A DNA stretch of 64,000 nucleotides, from assembly GCA_035221665.1 (NCBI GenBank), contig CM069162.1, positions 17,918,001-17,982,000 on the forward strand, in the 5' to 3' direction. The position numbers were made by a program, and so were the translations under genes. Under the pieces are notes generated by a model. That model worked only from the letters and a program-made list of their open reading frames with translations. It ran no database searches and was not told the DNA's origin. Every line of letters begins with the position of its first letter. Positions within the stretch are counted from its first letter, which is position 1. This DNA comes from Okamejei kenojei (lineage: Eukaryota). Of the stretch, positions 1,608 through 28,600 are shown one piece after another.

Positions 1608-4600
1608 CTGCAAGAAAACAAAAATTATATAAATAGTTTAGACATAAATGTTCTCAACTGAAAATTATAATTACATACATGATAAAAAAATTACATTCTT
1701 TCCCACGACTTTGTAATAAATAAATTGTACTACTTTTACATGGCAACCACAAAATTCAACAAAGCCCCAGATAATCGGTTTTAAATGTGCTAAACTGTAG
1801 AGACAAGCAGGAATAAGCCTGACACTAGGTCATCCAACAAAGTACAAACGGAAAATGTCAATAAATTCATAAATCGCATATTCCTCCCTTGCTTCTTGGA
1901 AGACCCCGATGTAGATTTCATCAAGTTCAGGGGATTGGTACACCTTAATAACTAGTGCATCAATAACTTACATTTCCACTCTCCCAATACACATGTGTTC
2001 CAAACCTTCCCCCTCCTCAACCTTTCGCATCCTTCACTCTCCTCAACTCCCCCCCGTGAAATACTCATTCCGGACAGCACACATTTCCCCCGACTCCAGA
2101 GCCCTTTGGACTCCTGAGGAAACCCTCTCTTTTCCTACCTACTCTTGCTTTGAATATGCATAATAGGTTTTGTAATTCTATTTAATTCTGTTAGGAAAGG
2201 TAATTTCATGTACTCTTTTTGCCCTCTTGCCAACTTTCTTAAGTTCTCCTCTGTATCCTTTACAAACCTCAAAGGACTCACTTGATACACTATTTCCTAT
2301 ATCTGACATCCGGTTCTATCTTCTTTCAAAATCAAACTCCCGATTTCCTTTCTTAATTCCTTCTTCAAGTTTCCTGATCTTGTCATCTTTGCTTCTTGTC
2401 CTTACAGAGATAAGCCGATTCCAAAGAAGCTCATTCAAGAAACCTACCTCTCGAATATTGGCATCGCACACTCGAATAATGTTCAGGAACGTGGGCATGA
2501 CTTGAGGCAGGAACTGGACGCACTTTAAGCCCAAAGACTTGAAGATAAACGTGACAGCCTGAACGACCATTGTGTGGTGGTTTGAGAGAGAGGTGTCTCG
2601 CAAGATGCGCATCAGGGTCACTACGGCAACAGCCGGGTAAAACTCATCCAATGGTAAATTCCCCATGTTCACCAGCATTTCACTCGTGCTGTAATCGGCT
2701 GCAATCAAAATAAACATAAAAAATGTAAATAGAGAAACGTTTGAATATTAATAATTGCAGTGCAACAGATCCACTGGATCAAAACTGTTTCTGATTTTAT
2801 TATGTAGTGCCTTCTTGAGGTTTGTTTAAGGTATACAGTAGTACAACACAGAAACAGGCTAAACTCCCTCAACGTATTTTACTTGGTTGGAGGGGTCTAC
2901 ATTTTACACTCCCTTCTCCTAAATTGCAGAGCATCCTAACAGAGAATTAAATAAATACTTTGAAACAGTCATGATCAATCATATTTAGAGTTCCTTCGTG
3001 AAACAGCAGGAAATACCAATTACTTAGAAAATACTTTGTTGAAAATGTGGCTTTGCGCTCAGTCCATAAATCTTCACACAGCGAGACTTTGAATTCATTC
3101 AACAAAATGCATGCATTATCTTGACACAATGCGTTAGATGGAGATGTCTTCGTGTTAATAATCCATTCAGCTGTAACCAGTGCCCAATATCATTTCATTT
3201 TATTGCAGAAGGTCACACTTATTTCCTGAAGTACTTTTAAATGAAGAAACTAAAAGGTACAATCAATCTTTGCAAAGTAGGATAAGGTCAGTCTGCATTA
3301 TACCCAGTTGTGCAGAGCTACTTACTCCATAAATTATTTTTATCATCATAAAATAAAGCTGCAATGTTAGTTGCCTTCTTTTGAACTCTCCCCCAATTAA
3401 ATGCTATCACAATAATTTGTTATTCTACCATTTTGATTAGTCTTCATACCCCATTAATTATTTGCAACAAGGTGACTGCCCACTTTACAAGGCATCCTGA
3501 TGTATCAATCAATTCTCACAAACAATGTTTATATATTGATTTTAGGCATAAAAATAAAGACATCCTAATGTTGTAGTTCACACTAGCTTGCAGACATATT
3601 TGGAAAGGAGGGAAAAACATTGACTTGAAAATGTTTAACTCACCGCTTACTATAATTGAGACTTAAGTTTAGAAAGTGTACCCAATTATATTTGTGTTTC
3701 ACTTAAAAATAATGAACAGAACCTTCAAACAGAGTATCGCTGAAACTGAGAATGATCCGATCATGATTCCTGCCTATCAAACAAGTCACTCCACTACCAT
3801 GTAGTAACAAATACACTCAATCAGATCAGGCATAATGATTTCTAAATGCAATTGATATTTGATTAAAATATGGATTACATTTCTGGAATATGTTGCAGAT
3901 TGTATTATATGTATGAACAGCTAGCTCAGGTCCCTGTGCATGATACTACTTCGTGCTTTAGTGCCTCCTGCTATACATTAGTGAATTTTTGTGCTGAACA
4001 GTGTCCTCTCAGTGTCAAATAATCTGCAGCTGTTGAAGCTTACACAACATGACTGTTTTAGTGAGACACATGAGATCTATAACGCCTGTAAAGCTGCATT
4101 TTACAATAAGATGCAAAGGTGGATTTGGGGCATGGATTGATAGATGGGATTGAGATATTATAACCATGACAGAAATATAGATAACAGAGGGGCAGGACTG
4201 GCAGCTCAAATGTCCCAGGATACAGATGCTACAGGTTTCAATTTAATTTATTGCCACGTGTGCTGAGGTACAGTGAAAAGCTTTTGTTGCGTGCAGGATG
4301 CACATGCAGGATATAGAGCAAACAAGGAGTGAAATTGTGTTTGTGATTAAAGGAGAACGTCACGGCAGTACTTCAGGAGATATCCTTTGGGATTCATCCA
4401 GTAAGGCTGGATGATTCATTAAAGGGTGCAATAAGAAGTGGATGATCAATTGGATGTGATTGTATTATAGGTCCCCAAATAGTCAGCAGGAATGAGAGGA
4501 ACAAATATATAGGGAGTTTGCAGGTAGCTGTATAGTTAATGAGGTTGTAGTGCAATTTCAACTTCACTCATATCGACTGTCTTACATACTTGTGGAAGTG

Positions 4601-7600
4601 ACAAAGGTGATTGATGAGGGCAGGGCAGTGGATGTTATGTACACAGACTTCAGTAAAGCATCTGGCAAGGTTCGTCATGGTAGGATGATCCAGAAGATTA
4701 AAAAGCATGAGATCTACAGTGACTTGGTAGCTTGGATTCAGATCTGGTTTGCCCTTAAAAAAGGTAGTGTGGTACTGTGGAAGGTTATTCTGGCTAGAGA
4801 TATGTGACCAGTGGTGTTCCCCAGGGATCAGTGTTAGGACCTCTGTTGTTTGCGAACATGTAAATGGATCACTTACTTACTTTGCTGATGGCACAAACAT
4901 CAGTGGACTTGCAGACAGTAAAGCCGACGGTCAAAGAGTACAGAACAATCACAGATGTGGGTGGAGAAATGGAAAATGGAGTTTAATCGGGACAAGTGTG
5001 ATGTGTTGTACTTTGGGAAGTCAAATATATAGGGAACATATAAAGTTAATGGCAGAACCCATATACAGAGGGATCTTGGGAACCAAATCCATACTCACAA
5101 AAATAGCAATGGATCATGTGCAGGCAGAAGGGGTCAGTTTAATTTGGCATGATGTTTAGCACAGATATTGTGGGCCTTAGGGCCTGGCTCTGTCCTGTGC
5201 CACAATGTGTTCCATGTTCTTATTGCCCAGGTGATCATGTTATTTTATGTAGCATTTCATACACGAGTGTCATCAGGGTCGAATGGGCCAGCAGAGGGTG
5301 TCGAAGGTCGGACAGGCCCACAGTGAATGAAGAGAGACCTGGCGGACTAAATGGAATACTTTTAACTTTGTCGACGCCCCAAATGTGGCGACTCTTTGCA
5401 TACTTGTGTACGCAAAACAAAGAATCGCAGTGTGACATGCCGCATGTGATAATAAAGTCTCATTCATTGATTCCTTGCATATCAAAGATAAGCATGTAAG
5501 ATAAGATCAGTGTTTTGGTTGGTTCAAAATATTACTTTCGATTTCTTGTCAAAAGGAAATACAATATCAAAAATAAAGGCTAGAAGCAATTACATTAGTG
5601 TTCATACATTTCTCAAGTTACTGCCAATGCAACTGATCCTTAATGCGAAACACATTCATACCTGGGGGTGGAAGATGGCAACCTTCACGTGGTCTGCCCT
5701 GTTACGACAAATGCAATCAACCCGGCGTGCACAATCAAATAAAATCAAATAGAACAAGTCGTCCTACAACTTTAGACTGTGCACTCCATACGCAAGAAGA
5801 AGATTCATACCTGAATCCTGATTCGATTTAGACTCTGATAGACTGACAGCAGAAGCATCTCGGGACTGGTCAATCATCCCAATATTAACCTTGTGCTTGT
5901 ATGGATCCAAGGCACCCAACAGCCCCAAGACACGGATTGCCTACGAAAAATAGCAAAATATTGTTAAATATTTTGCACCTTTCTTAAAGAAAAAACATAT
6001 TTAATTAGCAGCTATTGAAATAAACTCATCATAATTCATAGATTTCTTGTATAATTATTTTCTTTATGCAATTTATGCAACCATTTGCTATAGGTTTTAA
6101 ATTTCCCTTTGCATTAAGATAGAGCAATATTTGCAAATGAATTTGCAAATTAATTTCAAGGTATGCTTACAACTCGGCTTGTTCTCGCTAGAATTTAGAA
6201 GATTGTGGGGGGATCTTATAGAAACTTACAAAATTCTTAAGGGGTTGGACAGGCTACATGCCGGAAGATTGTTCCCGATGTTGGGGAGGTCCAGAACAAG
6301 GGGTCACAGTTTAAGGATAAGGGGGAATTCCTTTAGGACCGAGATGAGGAAAACATTTTTCACACAGAGTGGTGAGTCTCTGGAATTCTCTGCCACAGAA
6401 GGTAGTTGAGGCCAGTTCATTGGCTATATTTAAGAGGGAGTTAGATGTGGCCCTTGTGGCTAAAGGGATCAGGGGGTATGGAGAGAAGGCAGGTACAGGA
6501 TACTGAGTTGAATGATCAGCCATGATCATATTGAATGGCGGTGCAGGCTCGAAGGGCCGAATGGCCTACTGCTGCACCTATTTTCTATGTTTCTATGTTC
6601 CTATGTAACTCTGCAATCTGTCTGGAGGGTGTTTATCGCAAAGATACCTCCATTTTGCTTGTGTTGTCAGCACAAGAAAATAGGAGCAGACGTTGGCCCA
6701 TCAGGCTCATCATGTCTGCCCCACCATCCACTATGATCAAAGCTGATCAATGCCAGCCTCATCTCCTGTGCCATATCTCCATAACCCTGAATTGCAGAGA
6801 CAAGGGTAAAGACTTCCCGAGATTCACTACATGTATCAATTTTAAATGACCAGCTCCTTATTTTGTTGTTATGTCCCCTTGGGGACTCTCCCACTGGTGG
6901 AAACATCCAAACATCGACCCTATCAAGCCCCATAAGAATCCTACATGTTTGAATATGGATGTATTTTTGCCCGGAATAGGATGATTTCCATTGGCTGACC
7001 TGGAGTAACACATGCATAGACTAAGATGCCATTTTCATGTCTTGGTAAGTATCACCCTTACCCTTTCTGACAGACAGAACAGGAGACCTTGCTGTGGGCC
7101 CTGAAACATTTTTGGTTCAGTATATACTCCCAATGTCATATATGTTGCAAGAGTAGAGTTACCACAAAAAGTTCCCCTAAATCGTGAAGTAAACTGGAAC
7201 TTCAACAAGATCTTAATGAATGGGTAGGTACAGGTTGTATTTCGGCTCAACTGGGGGTCGTCTCATCATCAAAATTTCTGTGACTGCTCGCTGTTTAGGT
7301 TTCAGGATGAAAAATGATGACTTTGCTCTGTCATTTTCCAGCAGCAGATGTGTTGCGCACAGATAGCCTGGAGCTCAGTTGTGCTGTTTTGTCTGCGAAG
7401 AAGCAGAAATGTTTGATCTTGCCTGTGCCTTTAAGGCCACATTTTCAATACTCCATACAGGTTTTTACAGTCACTTGTTAATGAATGAGGTGAGAGATTT
7501 TGTGGCAGCATGAAAAATCACTGAACTCATTTTAAATCTCCAAATACAGTGTTTCCAATATATATATATGTTAAAGCCTTGGAATGAATTTGTATTTGGT

Positions 7601-10600: not shown

Positions 10601-13600
10601 CTTGCCTTGCCCTGCAGGGGTGGTGTAAAACATTAAAAAAAGATGGGTTATAAATGCATGTTTGAGGTACCAGGGAACATGCAATTGAATGATATACAGT
10701 GTTGAGATTAGATCTTACAAACACTTCATTACACAACACATCAATGAAAGTGTTTTACAGGGACGCAAACATTTATTGCATGATATTTATTGCCCAGAGA
10801 TAGAAATTCACTGTGTTTGCTGCTAACCAGCCAATGTATTTGCACTTGTTTAGTAGCCCATAAAAGCATTGTTTATCAAAAATGATGTTACTCAAGTAAC
10901 CAGAGCGTTTACTTCCTGATCACATGCTAACACAAGGTCTTAACTGCTGCTTCCACAGACTTTTGCAGTGAATCAACTTCATGGTGTGAACTTAAGCTAA
11001 TATTTTCTCCACCATCATGAGGCACTGATGGGTGAAGAGAGTTTCACCGTATGATTTCCAATGAGATGAAGGTGCAAAGACAGGAACATTAGCAGACCAG
11101 GTTCATGTCCCTCTAATGTTAACTCCCAAATCTGGACACACACACACATATTTCAGAGAGGAGTAATGAAAAAACACTTGGGGGATACATCTAATTAAGG
11201 ACGCATTTCTCTCCCAAATGTACATTAGAATGTGGAATTATCCATACTGAAAAAAAGAGTGAAACATCATTTTTATTATCTTCCCAGTCTCTCCTGCTCT
11301 CTTCACGTAGAAATCATTTAAACCAATACCACTTTTACATGTACAGCATAGGAAGGAACTGCAGATGCTGGTTTACACCAAAGAAAGACACAAAATGCTG
11401 CAGTAACTCAGCGGGACAGGCAGCACCTCTGGAGAGAAGGAATCGGATTCTGAGAGAAGACAGTCTGAAGAAGGGTCTCGACCCGAAACATCCCCCATTC
11501 CTTCTCTCCAGAGATGATGCTTTCTCCTGCTGAGTTACTCCAGCATTTTGTGTCTATCCACTTTTATATGCTCATGCTTTACCTCTCTTCGAATACCCTG
11601 GTTCTGTTCGGTCTTCAGGAAGTTTAGCAGGACTTCAAGAAGGGAAGGGTATTTTCTGTAAGGCTCCACCACATAGCCAGTGCAGGCAACTTGCTGTCCT
11701 AAGGTCCACAGTGCCACCTGTCCAATTCACATAGAAATAGCAGCGGTTAATCTTTGATACACAATATAGCCTTTCTGCTTGCTTCAGAACCAACTGTACA
11801 GTTTATTGAAAAAGAAAGGGTAGTCGGAGCAGGATGGTGAGGAGACAGGAGGAGAAAGGGCAGAGGTGCTTGGAGAGGACAGGGATGGGAGTGAAGGGAT
11901 AAGTGAGTAGAATCATGGTGGAGAAAGAGGAAAGGAGGAAGAAGCACCAGTAGTAGGAGAATGGTGAAGAAAGGTAGCGAAGGCAAAAAAAAATTAAAAA
12001 ATCAGATACAGTCAATATAAAAATATTTTTATATTTACCGATTAACCTAGAAATATTGAACATAAACTTTTATTCAGGAAAGAAAGATAAATGTTCTGAG
12101 CTACAAAAATTTAAGAACAGGAGGTAAAGTAGTGTATTTAAAGCAAGCAGAAAAGATTTCCAAACAAGCCAGTTGGGCAGATCTTGCCTCTGCGCCACAG
12201 ATCCAGTTTTCGGGTGTGCAATTGTTGTTATCATAACAAGAAGTAATGAAACAGATCTGTAAGTGTTACATTCCACTATTGGCCTCTGCTGTGTAAATTT
12301 GTAAATCAATCTTGCAAGATAAACTAGGGTTTCTTTTTCTCCCGAATCTAAAGACAAAATGATTCTGGTTTCCTATCCACATGGTTGGAAACATTCAATA
12401 CCATGAGATCTGGTGTTCTGACAAACTGTGCTTCTCCCTAACCACTTTGCTCAGTGACTCACATTGATTTGGCATTATTATGGTTAGCTAGGTCAGGGCA
12501 GGACGAGCAAACAAAATGTTTGTGAAAAAGAGAATGAATGAAAGCATCAACTTGCTACACAGAACATTGCTTACTACTTGTGTGTACTTAGTCATGTTTG
12601 AAAATTGTTTGCCAATTGTACTTTTGCCAGCTTTTCAAGTAATTTAAGTTACTTTTCAGTGCTCAAAACGGCAGTACGGTATAATCCTCTGAGATACAGT
12701 TCTGTTGTGTTATTTTCAATTGAAATTGATTAAATCTTGCTTATTGTATTCCTACCATTTCTAACTGCAGTTAATGCACAATTACTGTGCTTTACATGTA
12801 CTCCACATATAATGCACTATTAATTTACTGTAACAGTAGTTAAGTTCTATTGTTGTTCTTTCCCTGTAGTTAATATTCTCCTACTGGATTTTTACTGCAT
12901 GGCCTAGAGGCCGTTTGGAAATGGGCCTTATAATGGTCATGGTTAATCCACACACTGCTGACGAACCCATATCAATCATTTTCTAATCAAATAAATATTA
13001 TATGAACTATTGCCTATCAAGTATTGAGGCTTCACCAGCAACTGACTGCACTGATTTGCAAAGATGTGAAATAAACATGACTTCACCATAAGGTTTACAG
13101 CATTTGTTGTAATTGTAAAATAACGGTGTTACCACTTCATGTTGAATTAGCACCATGAAAAATTATTTCAGCACTTCATGTTCTGGATACTAGATTCAAG
13201 TAATAGCATTAACATGATTATTTTCAGCATAATGATGATTTTTCTCACAACGAAACACACGCATGTATTATAGAAAATGAAAATGCTTACTTTGCAATTT
13301 TCCAAATCCTCCAGATAGTCCTTTACATTGTTATTGCAAATGTCAACTATAACACACATGAGCAAACATGCAAATGGTTTACCTGTCTCTTTGCAAGTGA
13401 TGATGAATCTTGAAGCATGTCCATTATGATTGGAAATAATTCATCCATCCATTTTCTCATGTCCAGTCCACTAACCTGCAGGAATAAAAATTATTATTAA
13501 CTTAAACCTCTGAAATAAAGGCTATCAACTGGACAGATTTGTATTACTCAATATTAAAATGTTTCATTTTACAACTGGCAAGTCTCCGTTCTACATTCAA

Positions 13601-16600
13601 GATACTTGTCTTAAAAACACAGCAAAACAGTTTTAGTTTAGTTTAAGATAGACACAAAATGCTGGAGTAACTCAACGGGTCAGGCAGCACCTCTGGAGAA
13701 AAGGAATAGTTGACGTTTTGGGTCGAGACCATTCTTCAGACTGAGACGGAGACAGAGTTTAGTTTAGCTTATTATTGTCACATGTACTGAGGTACAGTAA
13801 AAAGCTTTTTGTACTTTCACTAATTAGCAAGACATTTTACAATTACAAGAACATTACTTGAAAAGGTATTGGTGACTTATTTAACATTGAAGATTAAATG
13901 TAACTAAAAACCTGAAACATCCTGTCTGTTTACCAGTAATAAATAGAAGTTAAATATGCAAAGCAGGATGTTAAGAATCCTGGGCCATTGTGAGAAGGTT
14001 AAGAACTACAACAAGATTATACTGGACCTCTGCCCCCATTGTGAATTTCTGCCCAAATCTCCTCACAGCTGAATATTTGAGGACCAAATGCAAAGCTTCC
14101 CAGACTCCAGGAATGCTCAGAGGCTGCAAATTGAGGAAGCTCTTCCTGCAAAACATTCCTGACACCTTTGCTAGCTGGAAAAACGACAAACACCAGCTTT
14201 GCCAGCTGCAAAGGTTCATACACTTTGGGCAGGTTCATACACTTAGAATGACACAGAAAGAGGCTATTTATCCACCAAATCCATGTTAGCTTCCAAGCCG
14301 TTAAATACAGAGGGACTAAATAACAGCGATCAATCAACCAAACAGCTGAATAATAAAATATTTTTTTGAAACGGCTGTCATCTCCCCTCTAATTTGAAGT
14401 ACGGCACGGTGGCGCAGCGGTAGAGTTGCTGCCTTGCAGCGCTGAAGATCTGAGTTTGATCCCGACTACAGGCGCTGTCTGTACTTAGTTACACGCTCCC
14501 CCCGTGGGTTTTCTCTGAGATCTTCAGTTTCCTCCAACACTCCAAAGACATCCACATTTGTAGGTTAATTGGCTTGGTATAAATGTAAATTGTCCCTTGT
14601 TTGTGTAGGATAGTGTTCATGTGCAGGGATTGCTGGTCGGTGCGAACTCGCTGATCCTTCTACCAATTATGCTAAATCTACGCAACTTGGTTTTTACCCT
14701 TCTGGTTGGAGAAATAGGTTTGTCTGCACCTCTGATAATTTAAAACATCCCAATTAAGTCTCCCCTGCGCTCCTCTGTCCCAAAGCAAGCAACTCAAAGT
14801 TTATCATATCTCTTTCCAAATCCCTCGGAGGGGAGACGAGGAAAAGATATTCTGGTCAGAGGGTGGCAGAGATCTGGAATTCATCCTAAAAGTATGGCTG
14901 CAGCAGAAAACGTTATCACTTTTAGAAAATACTTAAGATGTTCCTATGATCTACTGTGAACCTGATGCTAGAAAATGGCAATTACAGTAGGTTGGGTATC
15001 GTTAAATAGAGACACACTGATGAAACACTGTGTGTTTCTGTGTCATGTTTTCTATGAGTCTATCCTCCTGCAGTCTAATGCTTTGCTACTCGACTGTGTA
15101 TCCAGTATTTCTAGCTGCAATTTTTATTTTATCTACCTACTACATTTGTCTAAATCAATATACAAAAAGCAAGGTATTGCCTTTCATTCATAAAAACATC
15201 CATCACCCTTTTGCTTTCTGTCACTGAGCCAACTTTGAATACAAGCTGGTATTTAACATTAAACTGAAATGAAATAATTAAAACAGAAACTTCCCCTTTG
15301 CCTCGGAACTTGCTGCCAAATACCCCCCACTAAAATCAATGGGGTTTCAGATCTCATGCCAAGTTAGAATGAGCAGAGGATCCCACATAAAATGAAGCAT
15401 AAATGCACAGAATTTAACCAAGATTCAGGTCCACTGCTGAACTCTGGATGAGAAGGCCTGGATGGCTAACTGGTCAGAAAAATAAAACTGCATGAAACCC
15501 AAGGAAACAAATGATATTTTTATAACCTGAGATGTCTTTCGTTTGCGATTTATGGGATCTATTTTGAGCCTTTTGCTAATTTTGTTTAGATTAGATTAGA
15601 GATGCAGCGGGGTGGAAGATTGCAACCTTCACGTGGTCCGCCCTGTTTCGACGTGCACAAACGGAAGATCAAATAGAACAGGTTGCCCAACAACTTTAGG
15701 CTGTGCACGCCACACGAAAGAAGAAGAAAGATACAGCGTGGAAACAGGCCATTTGGCCCACCGAGTCCGTGTCGACATGGGTATGCAAATGGATCAAGTA
15801 TCAGCAGGGTAATGAACAGTGAATAAAGCTGCAGAGTATGAGTAGGATTTCAAAAGGGCTGATCAGATGGACAGAAAAGTGGGAAGTGGAATTCCATCCT
15901 GAAAACATTTTGGGAAGAACAAAGAAGTCAAGAACAAGGTGGCAATATCGCGAGAAGTGATGAAGAAACAGGCAAATGGGACAGACAGACAAGGTGGTTC
16001 AGAAAGTAATAAAGGACCTCTTTCCGTGAAAAAAATATTAATCATCATGCTGAAAATGTCACGTCCTGAGACATTAAATCCATTTCCACCACAGAGGGTC
16101 TCTGAGCATTTTCTGATTTAATAACAATTACTTTCCTTTATTACCCAATATAAGGATTAGATTATGCTGCAAAAATGCCACATAGAACTGGAGTAACACA
16201 GCAGGTCAGGGCAGCATCGATAGAGAAGAAGGAACAAGTCCCGACCGAAATACCACTTCTCCATGTTCTCCACAGATGTTGCCTGACCTGCAGAGTTACT
16301 CCAGCATTTGGTGTCTTTTTTTGTAAGTCAGCAATGGGATTTCCCTGAAGAAGGTTCCCGATCCAAAACATCACCTGTCCTTTTCATCAGGAAATGCTGA
16401 GTTACTTCAGCACTTTGTATCTATCTTCTGCAGTTCCCAGTTTCTTCGAGATTATGCTAGGACTTTGCAAAGTAATAGATACGCTATAGCCTAGTTGCTA
16501 TGTCAAGTTTTTTCTCTCGATATTTCAAGGAAGGAAGAGATTGAATGAAAGGGAATAGAGACGATTTAATGATGATAAAAAGGAACTGTAGATGCTGGAA

Positions 16601-19600
16601 AATCGAAGGTAGACAAAAATGCTGGAGAAACTCAACGGGTGAGGCAGCATCTATGGAGCAAAGGAAATAGGCAACGTTTCAGGTCGAAACCTTTCTTTAA
16701 GGATGTTTCCAGGAATGGAACATTTTTGCTTCCAGGAGAGATTGGACAATTGCTTTGTTTATTTAGAACTGAAGAAGGTGAAAGAAGATTTAACATAGGT
16801 GCTTCAAATTACAAGGGACCTATCTAAAATAGATAGCAAGGATCCAAATAGCAGGGAGATCAACAAAAAAGGACATTCATATGAATTAACGAATGGCATG
16901 ATTAGAGGGCAGAAGAAATATTTTACTTTTGAAAAAATGTTGAGGATCTGGAATGTGCTGACTGACAAGACGATTAGCAGAAGCATTCAACATTTAAGAG
17001 TACTTACAGATACAGTTGAAGAATCATAACCTGCAAGGCTTTATATCAAGATCTGTTAAATTGGTTTGGCTTGAGTTGTTCTTTGGCCACCGCAGACATC
17101 ATGAAACAACTTGTCATAGTCATAGACTCATGAGCACAGAAAAGGGCCAATCGGTCCATCACGTCCATGCCAAACCTTTTGCCAATCTACACTAATCCTA
17201 TTTGCCTATATTAGGACCATATTCTTCTATTCCATGCCTATTTAAGTCACGGTCTAAATGCCTCGGGCAGTGCATTCCAGATATCAGACACTCCATGTGG
17301 GGGGAAAGGAACTAACCCCTCAGGTTCCCTTTAATCTTCCTTCTTCATGTTAAATTATGCCCCTTGTTTTTGAGGCCCCTACCCTAGAGAAAAGAAAAAG
17401 GAATCTGGCTATCAACCCTCTCTGTGACTCTCAAATTTGTAACTCCATAAGACAATAAGACATAGGAGCAGAATCAGGCCATTCGGCCCATCAAGTCTGC
17501 TCTGCCACACGATCGTGGCTGATCTATTTTTCCTTCTCAACCCCATTCTCCTCCCTTCTCCCAATAACCTTTGACACCCTTACTAATCAAGTACCTGACG
17601 ATCTCCGCTTTAAAAAGACCCACTGACTTGGTCTCCACCGCTGTCTATGGCACTGAATTCCCCAGATTCACCACCCTGTGGGGAAAGAAATACCACCTCA
17701 TCGCCACGCTTAAGGTACATCCTTTTATTTTGAGGCTGTGCCCTCTGGTCGTAGACTCTCCCACAACAGGAAACATCCTCTCCACATCCACTCTATCTAG
17801 GCCTTTCATTATTCATAGGTTTCATTGAGACCCCCCCTCATCCTTTAAACTCCAGCAAGTGCAAGCCCAGAGCCTTCAAACGCTCCTCATTCATTAACCC
17901 AATCATCCCCGGGAACATATTTGTAAACCTTCTAGGACTCTCTCCCATTCCAGCACAATCTTACTCAGAAAACTGAGAAAACCTCCTTAGTAAACTGTTC
18001 AAAATATTCCAAATGTTGCCTAACCAGCACCGTATAAAGCCTCAGCATTACATCCTTGCTTTTATATTCTAGTCCTCTCAAAATGAATGGTAGCATTGTA
18101 ATTGCCTTCCTTGCTACCGATTCAATCTGCAAATTATTCTTTCGGGAATCCTACACCAAAACTCCCATGTCCCTTTACACCTACAATTTCTGAATCCTCT
18201 CCACATTTAGAAAACAGTCTGCGCCTTTATTCCTTCTGAGTGCGTGACTATACTCGTTGCTACACTGTATTGCATTTGCCACTTCTTTGTGCACTCTCCC
18301 AATCTGACCAAGTCCTTCTGCAGACTCCCTGATTCATCCTGTTGAATCTCCTCTGCACTTTCTCCAGAGCAATCACAACCTCCCGATAGTGTGGTGACAG
18401 AACTGCAAAAAAAGCTCCAAGTGCGGCCTAACAACTGTTCTGTAAAGTTGCAACATAGCATCTGGACTTTTACATTCTATGCACCAACCTATGAAGGCAA
18501 GCATGTCATACACATTCTTTATCACCTTCTCCACTTTCAGGATAAGTGTTGTCACTTTCAGGGAATTATGAATTTGAACTCCAAAGTCCCGCAATTCATC
18601 TACATTTATTAGTGGCCTACCATTCACATTTTATATCCTATCCCTCCTTGACATCCCAAAATGCATCACCTCACACTTGCTGGGCCCAAATTTTACCTGC
18701 CAATGCCCCGCCAAACTTTCTATTTAATCTGTATCCTGTAGTAGTCTTAAACAACCTTCCTCATTATCTACAATACCACCAGTGTTTTTATCAAGCACAT
18801 ATTATACTGGACATTCACATTCAGGTTGTTGAATATATATCACAAATAGGAAATATCCCAGTATCAATCCTGCATTACACCACTGATCACAGACTATAAA
18901 TCAAAGAAACATTTTTCCACCACTATCCACTACTTCCCGTTATCAAACCAATTCAGGATCCAATTAACAGCTCAACTTGTATCCCTTTGTGCCTCAAACT
19001 TCTGGATCAGTCTAACACATGGGAATTTGGCAAAGGCCTTATTAACTAAAATCCGTACAGCCAATATTTACCACCCCGCCTTCCTTACTACCTTTGTTAT
19101 TTTCTCAAAAAACTCAAATCTAATTAATGAGACAGGATATCCCCACACAAAGCCATGCTGGCCATCCCCACTCAGCCCATCTTTCCAGACCTAGATAAAT
19201 CTTCGAACTTTCTCCAACAATTTCCGTACTGTTGACAGAAGGCTAATGGGCTTGTGGTTACATGGATTATCATTGTTGTGCTCCTTAAATTAAGGTATGT
19301 CATAAACGTGTATGGTTCACCTTAGTATAGTCAACTTCATATAATTTGTTACACATTTTATAATTTATTGGTGGTCCATAAATGCAATAAACCGTATTAC
19401 AGATAAATTATCACAATGGCTTTACCTGGGCTAGTTCACCGATTGTAGCCAGGACACTAATGATAACTCCAGGGTTGGGATCATGATCCTTCAGTTTTAA
19501 AATCAAAGCCTGAAAGGAAACATAAACATGTCTTGAGAGTAAATATGGAGCATTTTTACGCACAAACCAATACTGTAGTGTTAGCATGAATGACAATTTC

Positions 19601-22600
19601 ATCTTTCTACACAAATAACCACTGTAAGAAACTACATATGTTCTTGCGTACCTTAAGAATAGGCTCCATATAAGGCCGGATAAGGCGAGGGGCATTGGAA
19701 ACCAGATGGCCTAACATTCGGGCACTTTGCTCTTTGTTTCGACCTACTCCACTATGTTCCAGTTCAGTTAAAATCTGTGAATTATAAAAAATAAAAAACA
19801 AAGTTAGCGTACCTTTAATTTTGGTGACTTTTTAATTTCGGACATCATCACATTTTCATTTTGGAAAGCTTCTGAGACAACTTTAGATTATAAAAACTGA
19901 AAAGAAATCTACAGTATGAAGGGTTGTTGTAAATGAGCAGCTCCAACAATCCCAAGGAGGTTCTCCCACTGTTGCACAACACAGGATAAATGATAGTTGG
20001 GTGAATAAAAACTTCATTCTCAATTAAGACTGTTAACCTTTCAGTCTCAAGGATAAAAGCAAAAGTTAAATCATTGTTTCCACACAAGGTATCGTCTGTT
20101 TATAACTGTCCATAAATTACATTTATTCCTTGTGAGATAGGATACAGGAAGAAAAGTTTTGATTACAATGGATACCAGGCCAGTATATTTGTCAGTGTTA
20201 CTTTATATTAAAATACTACCTATTAATGACGTCTTGATTTTGCAAACCTGCAAAAGGGGCCTTCCTCTTAAATCTGAATCTGCACAATTAATTTGTAAAA
20301 AAGTCACTATATGTCATGGTTACTAAATATATAGCTGAAAGCATTAAATATCTTGTTACAGTCATATAAAAGATGAATGCACATTATGACATCCTGAAGT
20401 AAATTACCAAATATTTTCAACCTTTCAGACTTGGTTCTACAAACAGCTTTAACTTCATGTAGAATGTGAAAGGCAATATGAATTTTGTCTGGATATCTCT
20501 TCAATCTGTAAATTATCAAGAGCATAAATTGGGTAAAATAAAAATATTATTGAACGGTAAAAATAGGCACTGCATGAGAAGGTTATAATCTCGTTCCAAA
20601 AATTGGCATGGAAAAAGTAGCTGCCATACAGCTGTCAACGCTTCCTCCTGCATGCCAACAACTTTTCGTAAATGCAGAAGCACAAAAGATATCACATTCA
20701 ATACAGTTGTGAGGGCCTGATACGGATGTGCTCCAATTCTTCTTGGACTGCAGCAGGGAAAGGTGAAGCCCCAGTGCCTTCCCATGTTGATGCAGGGCCC
20801 ATGTACCCTTCCTGGCATGATCAGTGAGAAAACAACCCAGTCAATCTCCATCAGTTTAGAATGCACAAGAAAGGCTACAAGGTGAAAACATGGGTTTCAC
20901 TTCATGTATTTTTAGATTGGTCTGATATGTTTAAACAATACTCTGATTTTTTTTTTAAATATAGTAAAACTCTGATATTCCATTCTCTTACTGTTCTAGC
21001 ATCTAGCTCATTCAGCAAACCAATCTGCAGATGCTAGACAGCAGCAAAAAGTGATGGAAGCAGTGAGTAGGTCAGGCACCATACCTGAAAAGTGAAACAG
21101 AGCTAACATTTCATGTTGAAAACCCATTCACCTTCCCAGTTCCGGTGAGGAATATTGGCCAGAAAATATTTTTCTCCCCATTGATGCTGCCTGCCCTGTT
21201 GAGTGTTTCCAGTATTTTCTGTTGTTATTCTCTTAAAAGTTATTTTCTTAAAAATAAGTTCCTGCGTGCAAGGTTATTGCAGTAGATTGTTGATGTTATC
21301 ATAGCATGCACAATTATTTCTGCTTCATATCATTGTGTCATGGTGCATTTCCATTTTGGAAGCAGAAATTGGTCGATTATACGTTTTAGTAACTAACCCC
21401 AGGCCTCTCTTTCTGGTTACCCCATCTGTTGTTTAACTATTTAAAAAGCGCTTCATCGATGTAATTTAATTTAACTCATAATAGCAAGTCTATATTCCAT
21501 AAGGATTGTTAGTGTTATTCTTTAAAAAAAAAGAATCAATTTCCAATACATCCAGTTGCTCTGTTAGGCATCTAGATTTTACAACTCAAAACTTGGGATG
21601 AAAAGTCTGTAGGGCAAGATTCCAAGCATCTAACTGCAGAATGATATTGGTGGAAAATGAGAAAACAAAACAGCACGGTGGCGCAGCGATAGAGTAGCTG
21701 CCTTACCGCACCAGAGACCCGGGATCGATCCTGACTACGGGTGCTGTACGGAGTTTATATGTTCTCCACCTGACCATGTGGGTTTTCTCCGGGTTTCTCC
21801 CACATTCCAGAGACATACAGGTTTGTAGGGTTAACTGGCTTCAGTAAAAAAAAATATATATAAAATTGTCCCTAGTGTGTAGGATAGTGTAATGCTGCTA
21901 GTATACGTGGTGATCGATAGTCAGCATGAAATCGGTAGGCCGAAGGGCCAGTTTCCATGCTGTATCTCTAAACTAAACTAAAACCAATACCAGTATAAAA
22001 CAAGACCAAAACTGTCAAAGGTTTTTGACATCTGTTCTGAATTTCCACTGAAAGGGTCACCAGACAATTTAGCAAATGATTTCATTTCCTCCTGGGGCAA
22101 GACTAAGAGAGACCTTGACTGTGTAATTCAGCTTGCAACAGTGTCTTACAGTTGTATTTCAATTTATTATAAGATTTCCAGTCTCCAAGCTGGAGACTTT
22201 AAAGGAAATGGCATGTTCCAACTTATTTCCTTTCACAGACTAAATACCTCCACTTTGCTTTTTGCTCTCTGCTGTATCACCTCCTGCATTTGACAAGGAG
22301 GCCCCAATATTTAGAGGGTGCACAAGAGGGAGAAGCCAGCCATTGCTGAGACTGAATTCTACAGTAGGAAGTAATTGCAATTTTTTTCCTTTCCGTTTAC
22401 CACCGAATTACCAGCTAAACTGACTGGCTGGAGATTGTACCCAGGGATCCTTAGGGTCCATGCACAGCAGAGATTAAAGGGCTGGCGAGTCTGCTTGTGA
22501 TGGGGAAGATGGGTGTATCCATTTCCATTGTGGGAGAAGAGAGGCCACGAATAACACATTGCTTCCTTTTGAGAGACTGAGGGGACGGATCAAGCTGGGT

Positions 22601-25600: not shown

Positions 25601-28600
25601 GAATGATTAACAACGCAAGTATAATTCAAATACATCCCAAGGTTCCTACCTGATTAAATAAGAAACTGTCTACCCATTTACAGACTGACTCCCCAACCTT
25701 GTGTCATGTCATCTGGATGGAAAATAATACTGTTATTAATCCCTCACAAGGATGAATAAATAATTCATACAATATTGAAAATTCATCTTGAAATTGCCTA
25801 CTAATAATGTACAAACTGTTCCTTCTTACTAATGCTAATAATTAGTTTTGACATGTTCTTTGTACTTGGCAGACTTCGAGTAAGACGATAATTTCTGCTT
25901 TTCTCCCAGCACACCAAATTCCACGTCCCAAAAATCCCACGAGGATATCACTGAGCAGAATCAGGACTGGGTTGCTTTCACTAGATTTTTCTCAAAATAA
26001 ACACAAAAGCCACTCACACACTCCATCTACTGGCAGAATAGATAAGTTCATGAGAAGACAATAAAATAAGCAGTAAATAGTGCGTATCTTTGCTAAATAT
26101 AGTTCCCTCATCCCACGAATATGACTAATGCATACACACAGGAACATTAATACGAGACGTCGTAGGCAAGATAAAAGACAAACAAAATGTACTTTTATGT
26201 CATCGGAGGTAGACAGAAAATGCTGAAGAAACTCAGTGGGTGAAGCAGCATCTATGGTCTTGACCCGAAACATTGCCAATTCCTTCTCTCCATAGATGCT
26301 GCCTCACCCGCTGAATTTCTCCAGCATTTTTTGTCTATCTTTGATTTTTCCAGCATCTGCAGTTCTTTCTTAAACATTTGATGTCATCGGTTTTGTTTTA
26401 CAGGACCGAGCAAGGATATCAATGTTTACTGTAAATGCGCTATTTTTGGGGTTTGCTTGTTTAGTCTAATGCAAAGCGTATAGTGTGAAATCCGTACATA
26501 CTGGCAAATAATAATATATATTTTTAAATTCTACCTGTATCAGCATTTTGCGAAGAAAAGGCATCACAAATGCAGGATTCATACTGCTCAATCTGCCAAT
26601 GGTGCAAATGGCAAGCTCGCGGATTTCAAACACTTCATCATTCAGTGCCACAAAAAGAGCTTGCAGATTCTCAGCTTGGGCTAAATGGGCATCAAAACGT
26701 TCATCCAAAGACGCCAACACGCAATACCGAATATCAGGATCTGAATAAACGGGGACATGCAAAATTCTCCATAAGTTTAAAAACATCAGAATTTAGAACC
26801 ACTAGTTTGCATTCTACTATTTGCTATTTATGTATTACAAAACAGAATCAATTTACTTTTTAATAACAGAATATCCCAATAGGCAGAACAATGGAAGACA
26901 GGTTTCTACAGTTAAATTTTATTACTTAAATGACATTATTACTTAACGTCTTGTTGAACTTTGAGAAAAATATCCTCATGCAGTTTTACTTTCTTTTACA
27001 ATAGATAAAGAAGTTATAAAAGTAGGTAAACACCGATAAATCTGCAAAACTATTTTAGTTTGAACTGTGACAAAATACTTTGCAGTGTGTTCAAAGGTGT
27101 CGACAGATAAGCTTCAGTAGTAGGTTTTATCTTGTGAAATGGGATTCCAAGAAGATTAGAGCAGACATTTCAAAGATACAAATCTAAAATGGGCAAAGAT
27201 GTAGTTTTTAGTCAACGCCTATTTAATACAAATGCTTATTTTACCAATTATGTTTTATTAGTTTGGCCAAAGCTCATGATTCATTACATCAATTACCCAT
27301 AGCTATTGCAATCTCGTTGCCAACCCGAATAGAGTGCTAAGCGTTTGACAATTTATGCTTAAAAAAAACCCCACAAGGACTGTAATTAAATGTCACAAGC
27401 TGAAGTGCTTTCATCATTTTTTTCACAGTAAACTGATAGTCTTACCCCATCTAATTCAAATTCTGAACAATTACCTGGATCTGTAATTCCTACAATGAGG
27501 AGTTTACTAAGCACATCTGCCACAACCTGAACGGCTGTCTGGCTGACAACATGGCCATGTCCACTGATAAGATGGACTGACGGAGTTAGGAGTCGTGAAC
27601 AGGTTCTGGCTGCCTCCATTCGAATCTCTTTGTGCTCACTGTTGAGGAAGTGGTCTGCGCAATGTCTGACAAACTGGGTAAGAGAATGGCCTGCATTAAC
27701 ATGAAACAAAAATAAGTCCACATTTAGGAACACAAGGCATGCTAAAAATGTAATGAGAAAATTCTGGAAAATTTAGCTAGAAAATAATGTGGACTATATA
27801 TTTTTAAAATATACATATATGTGTGTGTGGGTATTTGAATGTATTTTTAATAACTTTATATATATACCCACACACACATATATGTATATTTTAAAAATAT
27901 ATAGTCCACATTATTTTCTAGCTTAATTTTCCAGAATTTTCTCATGCAGTTTAGACTTGTTAATCATATTATATTTTACAACTGAGATTAAAAAAAAGTT
28001 CTGGAGGATAATACATTTCAACAAGTCCACAAAACTGTTTAAGTTGAACTGTGACTCCTGCTCTAATTTGGATCCATGACATAATTACAGGATTGGTGAC
28101 CACATTCATTTTAATGAGGTTTCTCCATTGGATAATGACGTTTTTTTTAAATAAAAATGCTATTGATTTGCAAACATTTGAATGTATTTTTAATAACTTT
28201 ATTCTTTTAGCTGTTATACTTTTAACTATGTAGATTAGTGTTAATAGCTTTCAGATGCCTCAAAGTATTAAACTCATTTAAAAAGAAGCCGTCTAGCTTT
28301 CACAGGAACTGAAGCTCGACCCCAGCTTCCCTTCACTTCAAAAGCTGTCATGGCAGTCGCTGGGATGGGCCTCATCAGAACGCCATCTGAAGCATAACTG
28401 AACTTCACCTAGATATGCACATTCACTAGATTGGTTCTCTGCACAGCATTCATCCATTCAGGTTGGGTAGATTTAGCACAATCCAGCCCTTAAATATTTA
28501 CAGCACTAAAGGAGGCAATTTGATCATCGCTGCAAACTAAAAAAGGAACTTCCTGGGTCAATCTCACTCCCTGCTCTTGAAACATAGCTAGTCCTCATCC

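Follow-up and report, generated by a model that had tools for sequence, protein, structure and literature searches.

Ribozyme-headed short retroposons of the SIDE type are already known, namely NARTc and the R2 SIDE. In the trypanosome pairs NARTc/L1Tc and RIME/ingi, as described in the accessible portions of PMC3185411 and PMC4035085, an Ingi-group LINE is accompanied by a short, internally deleted element in which the 5' HDV-like ribozyme and the 3' end are retained. The R2 SIDEs and R2/R1 hybrid SIDEs of Drosophila likewise consist of a 5' ribozyme fused to a LINE 3' end and are moved in trans (PMC3414825, accessible part). Bipartite internal-deletion derivatives of Vingi LINEs, namely the Vingi-1_EE derivatives and SINE2-1_ACar/Vingi-2_ACar, are cited in the available excerpt of PMC5786205; the same excerpt states that bipartite elements come from RTE, Ingi, Vingi, and R2 only, calls the reason for this unknown, and lists six ribozyme-bearing clades, Vingi not being among them. 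According to the available part of PMC13708176, Vingi-1_Acar serves in RNA-based gene insertion, where the donor RNAs carry the native UTR at each end. The comparison literature, available in part, also includes PMC6765202, PMC5753468, and PMC3391268. Neither a Vingi ribozyme nor any mention of pairing between LINE ends was found in the literature searched; Repbase, Dfam, or patents may already hold part of this. Among the matches listed, the word "ribozyme" was absent from the literature on cartilaginous fish. Ingi is the sister clade of Vingi, so a Vingi ribozyme is an expected extension of the known cases; the end pairing described below is the less expected part.

The window (the whole 64-kb stretch of DNA analyzed here) contains two plus-strand copies of a short element, at 5665..5802 (copy 1) and 15609..15728 (copy 2), whose places, GGGGTGG start, and (AAG)n ends are just as reported in an earlier note on this DNA; no third copy of the family was found in it. 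By sequence comparison, copy 1 lies between exact 11-bp target-site duplications (TSDs) at 5654..5664 and 5803..5813 of the plus strand. The TSD length of 9 to 11 bp given in that note also holds for copy 2, which is flanked by 9 bp at 15600..15608 and 15729..15737 (plus strand), but these two repeats differ by one mismatch. Stretches coding for MTOR on the minus strand lie on either side of both copies, at 2439..2702 (human aa 926-1013, E 5e-45) and 19649..19780 (human aa 735-778, E 2e-21), so both copies are intronic and, as had been claimed, antisense to this host gene. Another short repeat also has many copies in the window (11461-11545, 13660-13744, 16577-16697, 26256-26374, and others) and occurs inside the locus L220 as well.

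The host is a vertebrate and, judging by its genome size and a SINE in the flanks, possibly a cartilaginous fish. A search of its 2.76-Gb assembly with a 35-nt pattern for the ribozyme core retrieved 5,912 exact matches, against 0 for a control pattern; since 13 of 30 sampled copies match this 35-place pattern, we arrive at a crude estimate of about 14,000 copies in the genome. The first 30 matches of a tail-only pattern served as an unbiased sample of 5' ends (a single duplicated locus accounts for two of these), and these ends proved homogeneous: 29 copies reach G1, and the remaining one lacks 15 nt. An adjacent TSD of 11 to 15 bp was found in 19 of the 27 scored copies (3 of the 30 were skipped). 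The element has amplified as a family of its own, with TSDs and without coding capacity, as is typical of a SIDE. It falls into two main subfamilies, A (with copy 1) and B (with copy 2), which differ in the region of positions 58-74 and in the final bases. Further, it is present in contigs from 24 sequencing runs of 14 studies (10 organism codes, one metagenome, one unlabelled), one of them recorded as RNA; the lack of cover of the LINE middle in these contig runs carries no weight as evidence. Compared with L272, a locus of the parent LINE introduced below, the assembled contigs of one data set (X1) display other deletion junctions and deep opposite-strand joints, suggesting further derivatives of the same LINE in another organism, and a contig of another (X10) has a tandem double head.

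Judged by the sequences of its termini, the 138-base element is a SIDE derived from V6, a 3.0-kb single-ORF LINE of the Vingi type, of which just the two ends were kept. The first ~77 nt and the last ~40 nt of the element match both ends of this one autonomous LINE, and a single V6 locus, L272, holds both element ends, 3.04 kb apart, with a TSD. In copy 1 (all plus strand), 5665..5741 corresponds to the V6 5' end (BLAST to L272 1-77), and 5763..5802 corresponds to the V6 3' end, comprising the last codons, the stop, the 3' UTR with its pairing arm (see below), and (AAG)3. The ~20 nt that join the two parts (5742..5762) are absent from the LINE; this piece repeats CAAATAGA and includes 7 nt of the tail in inverted orientation, making a small hairpin. 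V6 heads in L271 and L272 open with the element's first 72-77 nt and then run into the APE ORF, which starts ~110 nt after G1 and terminates within the element's last ~40 nt. The V6 protein combines APE and RT domains without an RNase H, which the Nimb control possesses; PF00075 (RNase H) is in none of the 120 relatives listed, mostly APE-RT proteins of ~1,000 aa. On the basis of this architecture, and of the known form of Vingi ORFs, we take the parent to be a probable Vingi. The same combination, one compact ORF that encodes APE and RT but no RNase H, is how the accessible part of PMC13708176 defines Vingi. The earlier note had proposed a bipartite non-autonomous element made of a LINE 5' ribozyme and a LINE 3' tail, possibly from Ingi/Vingi or RTE, and had called for a LINE sharing both termini; the bipartite structure is borne out and V6 is that LINE, so the partner is of the Vingi type and not RTE.

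V6 was reached from a Pfam APE search by way of a Vingi-like ORF in a lower row, from which protein searches led to several families including V6. The I-group/Nimb-like family that appeared in the top 30 of the Pfam APE search was ruled out as the partner, as was the first candidate, V1, whose overlap with the element is limited to the final ~15 nt and some of the core; exclusion patterns aimed directly at a LINE tail matched short copies only. The loci L061-L090 represent an abundant LINE of the I-group/Nimb-like kind that has two ORFs and an RNase H; an open frame of 1,276 aa occurs in one of its copies.

The V6 copies examined are all broken (longest frame, 414 aa), and only three of eight V6 heads in normal orientation start at G1/G2. 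Four V6 LINE copies (L273-L276) lack 7-12 nt at the 5' end and stop inside P1/P2, which short copies almost never do. In L237, L280, and L288, the V6 head lies inverted beside the ORF start, an arrangement that twin priming would be expected to give, and in L270/L277 a short copy has inserted, with a TSD, into its own parent LINE near the ORF start. Pairwise divergence is 8.9% among V6 copies versus 5.8% among tail-picked short copies (3.9% in a low-biased set), so that the V6 copies look older than their derivatives. This bears on which LINE copied the element most recently. V3a (L227, L233, L239) is a young Vingi family, a candidate for recent activity, with three copies only 0.9% apart pairwise over the last 500 nt, and CATACGC(AAG)n is the ending of its copies as well as of subfamily A, within which some copies are identical. 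It is therefore conceivable, if rather improbable, that the element arose from V6 and that its later copies were mobilized by a different Vingi family of younger age, for example V3a. Weighing against this, the search for V6 scored 150 of 507 candidates, so younger V6 copies may have been missed, and the identical subfamily A copies were drawn from a best-match list.

The head of copy 1 is predicted to form a minimal HDV-like ribozyme of 54 nt (5665..5718), as indicated by a structure descriptor and by covariation across families. All on the plus strand, it consists of a 7-bp P1 (5665-5671/5694-5700), a P2 (5674-5680/5712-5718) with the one mismatch noticed earlier, a 3-bp P3 (5681-5683/5691-5693), an L3 (5684-5690), a P1.1 of one pair (C5686-G5701), and a predicted catalytic-position C (C5708). 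The parse of P1, P2, P3, L3, and the catalytic C with its trailing motif in the earlier note holds, except that its "RAA" for that motif was too narrow, N being U, G, or A. In HDV-like ribozymes, the catalytic C is followed by an N-R-A motif. Across the family, we find the hallmarks of this class in nested order: the 7-bp P1 from G1 (G-U or G-C), P2, the 3-bp P3, and P1.1, together with the conserved U and G of L3 and a catalytic C that is first in J4/2 and precedes N-R-A. This C44 is kept in 28 of the 30 tail-picked copies, and the same C recurs in V1-V4; the predicted cut site coincides with the element boundary in 29 of 30. Copy 2 (subfamily B) departs from this pattern through an 18-nt deletion after position 44, between two TCGAC repeats. 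It had been described as having lost most of the P2 3' strand; the loss is real and is in fact larger, the whole strand plus the N-R-A being gone. The deletion junction has 5 exact matches genome-wide, on both A-type and B-type tails, so the deletion arose sporadically and does not define a lineage that amplified.

An HDV-like descriptor run on the window has copy 1 as its only match (with one P2 mismatch allowed). In 2.5 Mb of fetched loci, where some places occur twice and all the listed head types belong to this family or to Vingi LINEs, the structure descriptor has 66 matches, against 0 in 7.5 Mb of shuffles. Control descriptors in which A or G replaces the catalytic C match only the same starts, shifted in register, and the one printed match of the U-control is a decayed copy. 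The Rfam models, whose HDV-type members derive from other lineages, gave no match, and hence none at the gathering score, on either window copy or on the head of this family. Whole-copy fold energies from pseudoknot-free folding are no better than those of shuffles (z -1.2 to +0.4). Covariation, a check suggested in the earlier note, is absent within the family: no pair changes on both sides, paired and free sites vary about equally (3.0% versus 3.7%), and only 16 of 30 copies keep every ribozyme pair. Among 59 B-type copies, the first P3 pair is broken in 7, and the variants common to at least 9 fall outside the core (J1/2, hairpin, tail). Six copies carry a U21A variant, by which P1.1 would gain a second pair. 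The P4 region spans 7 nt in V6 and its derivative versus about 17-45 nt in the other families; the small form of the ribozyme is inherited from the LINE and is not the product of the internal deletion.

It is across families that the pairing covaries. Full-length copies of V1, V2, V3a, V4, and V6 have the same fold in different letters, with two-sided changes at P1 positions 4-7, throughout P2, in the first P3 pair, and in P1.1 (C-G becoming U-A in V2), whereas G1, the U and CG of L3, and the C-N-R-A are constant. Rfam HDV-type models fall on the 5' ends of Vingi elements in 2 of 8 and 5 of 10 loci, all below the gathering score, with E values of 0.002-8.9 for sister heads. In unrelated metagenome contigs collected with a Vingi alignment (36 of 120 proteins), 23 loci include an ORF start, and 5 of these, representing 4 distinct elements, pass the descriptor, with 0 matches in 169 kb of other loci; by eye, 7 more loci are near fits and 3 of the 23 resemble LINEs with RNase H. 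On the basis of these observations, the predicted HDV-like head very probably self-cleaves 5' of G1. We also noticed a second SIDE family of ~200 bp derived from V3b (10 loci, L336-L345, e.g., G000:C2:115583701+), with an HDV-like head that has a 5-bp P4; one member, L343, matches Rfam RF02682 (E 0.008). In V2 (L215/L222), the P2 5' strand recurs in the 3' UTR, which could thus vie with it for pairing to the P2 3' strand.

The stem that had been seen in the 3' half of the element is present, but it is not a local feature: its strands come from opposite ends of the LINE, the 5' UTR being complementary to the 3' UTR. In copy 1, the 5' arm lies at 5724..5733 and the 3' arm at 5778-5787 (plus strand); the 3' arm of copy 2 lies at 15702-15711. 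In seven families, the cognate assignment of 5' to 3' ends ranks first of 5,040 permutations at three window sizes, with the reservation that windows, anchors, and copies were hand-picked after the pairing had been noticed in V1-V6 and that the families are related. In all seven, the best helix starts 2-4 nt after P2 and ends 4-6 nt before the terminal repeats, offsets that count one unpaired flank base. With V3b, V8, and four metagenome elements, which joined the set after the idea was formed, cognate ends of 11 families pair best in 8-9 rows and 8 columns, and 0 of 200,000 random permutations equal this. When the register is fixed, at least 8 of 9 pairs form in 5 of the 11 cognate combinations and in 2 of the 110 non-cognate ones; V2 and m351 misfit. 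In 4 of 9 single decayed copies, the terminal window ranks within the top 5% of windows from the body, and in 1 of 5 the pairing is clearly above shuffles. The V6 arm contains a palindrome. In subfamily A, an A-C mismatch of the stem has become G-C (G in 29 of 31 copies), and the 3' 84 nt fold into the end-to-end stem with z -2.9 in an A copy and z -1.5 in a B copy. The second SIDE family retains, besides the V3b head, only ~25 nt of the tail, that is, the 3' arm plus terminal bases, and in a single 90-bp deletion derivative of V3a with a TSD (L324 1501-1595) the junction joins the 5' and 3' arms directly.

Given this pattern, we lean toward the view that the complementary LINE ends join in a 5'-3' handle, which would present a 3' end that is short and single-stranded. 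The same complementarity, seen in most of the related elements checked, is likely to explain why such elements must keep both ends. It is unlikely, in comparison, that origin and ribozyme are as described while the complementarity plays no part in recognition, having arisen by chance or as a by-product of template switching at integration. Such a by-product would fit with the inverted heads of three V6 copies, which point to inversions being common, with the weak pairing controls in single copies, and with the two families that misfit the register. It does not readily account for arm sequences that differ from family to family yet keep one register, including in three metagenome elements outside the set on which the idea was formed.

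We regard it as quite unlikely that the exact 5' end is instead set by an internal Pol II promoter in the head, with the 54-nt ribozyme a slow or dispensable passenger. The precedent is Pr77 of L1Tc, which is both promoter and ribozyme (PMC3185411, accessible part), and the G1 start persists in copies with a broken P3, in a head from which P4 is nearly absent. A DNA promoter, however, needs no such fold, and this one covaries across families of differing sequence; moreover, the variant that lacks the junction has not amplified (5 matches), and ribozymes without P4 are active in vitro according to the available portions of PMC10879173. The B box consensus of tRNA-derived SINEs resembles TTCGA. 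A degenerate Pol III SINE of this origin with a fold arising by chance, which the TTCGA word at positions 39-43 might recall, is hardly credible and largely refuted: in line with the earlier claim of no Pol III boxes, ARAGORN found no tRNA in 6 loci and hence no tRNA-like head, at plausible places 3 mismatches separate the sequence from the 11-nt patterns for the A and B boxes, the head is the LINE's own 5' end, and the descriptor has 0 matches in shuffles, the absence of a T4 run being the other feature in keeping with such an origin.

Taken together, we consider it probable that the element is V6-derived, that a predicted self-cleaving head sets its 5' end, that its paired ends act as a handle, and that a Vingi protein copies it. 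Both termini come from V6, and the copies carry TSDs and (AAG)n tails. A source copy would be transcribed by read-through or from an internal promoter, and the 54-nt HDV-like ribozyme, going by its fold and covariation, would then cut 5' of G1 using C44. The segment that begins 3-5 nt past the ribozyme would pair with a second segment whose end lies 4-6 nt ahead of the terminal repeats, as the covariation suggests, possibly leaving a short single-stranded 3' end free. Target-primed reverse transcription is established for APE-type LINEs, and the Vingi protein, acting in trans, may make the copy in this way. Both window copies are decayed passengers, and because they are antisense in MTOR introns they would not cut the MTOR pre-mRNA. 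In a more general form, for which we see the chances as even, Vingi LINE RNA would combine a ribozyme cap with a conserved 5'-3' panhandle, the ribozyme fixing G1, the handle joining both ends and displaying the 3' primer site, and the protein recognizing the joint structure. If so, the panhandle would account for Vingi-type LINEs yielding bipartite mini-elements and would provide a design rule for Vingi gene-writing templates, of which this family would be a near-minimal natural example. More broadly, a self-cleaving head with a 5'-3' handle would bear on the design of templates for Vingi gene-insertion tools, and the end pairing makes testable the question, raised in the accessible text of PMC5786205, of why bipartite elements are the product of RTE, Ingi, Vingi, and R2 alone.

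Among the described systems, NARTc/L1Tc and RIME/ingi also resemble the present element in their dispersed insertion and in the P1.1 of one pair, as far as the accessible portions of PMC3185411 and PMC4035085 go. In those portions, no pairing of the ends was found described for either system, and L1TcRz is a 77-nt ribozyme with a P4, whereas that of our element has 54 nt and a P4 that is almost absent. The element further differs from NARTc/L1Tc in its Vingi-type parent without RNase H, its vertebrate host, and its roughly 10^4 copies. In the nested double pseudoknot, the P4 reduced to a short loop, and the catalytic C at the first position of J4/2, it resembles drz-Mtgn-1 and the theta ribozymes (PMC10879173, available part); those are traced to gut phages and often lie beside tRNAs, whereas the heads described here belong to a vertebrate LINE and its derivative. 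Vingi would join the ribozyme-bearing LINE clades, with a nearly P4-less HDV-like ribozyme at high copy number in a vertebrate genome. Whereas the R2 SIDEs are rare and confined to rDNA, as described in the accessible part of PMC3414825, this family is abundant and dispersed and has an APE-type parent.
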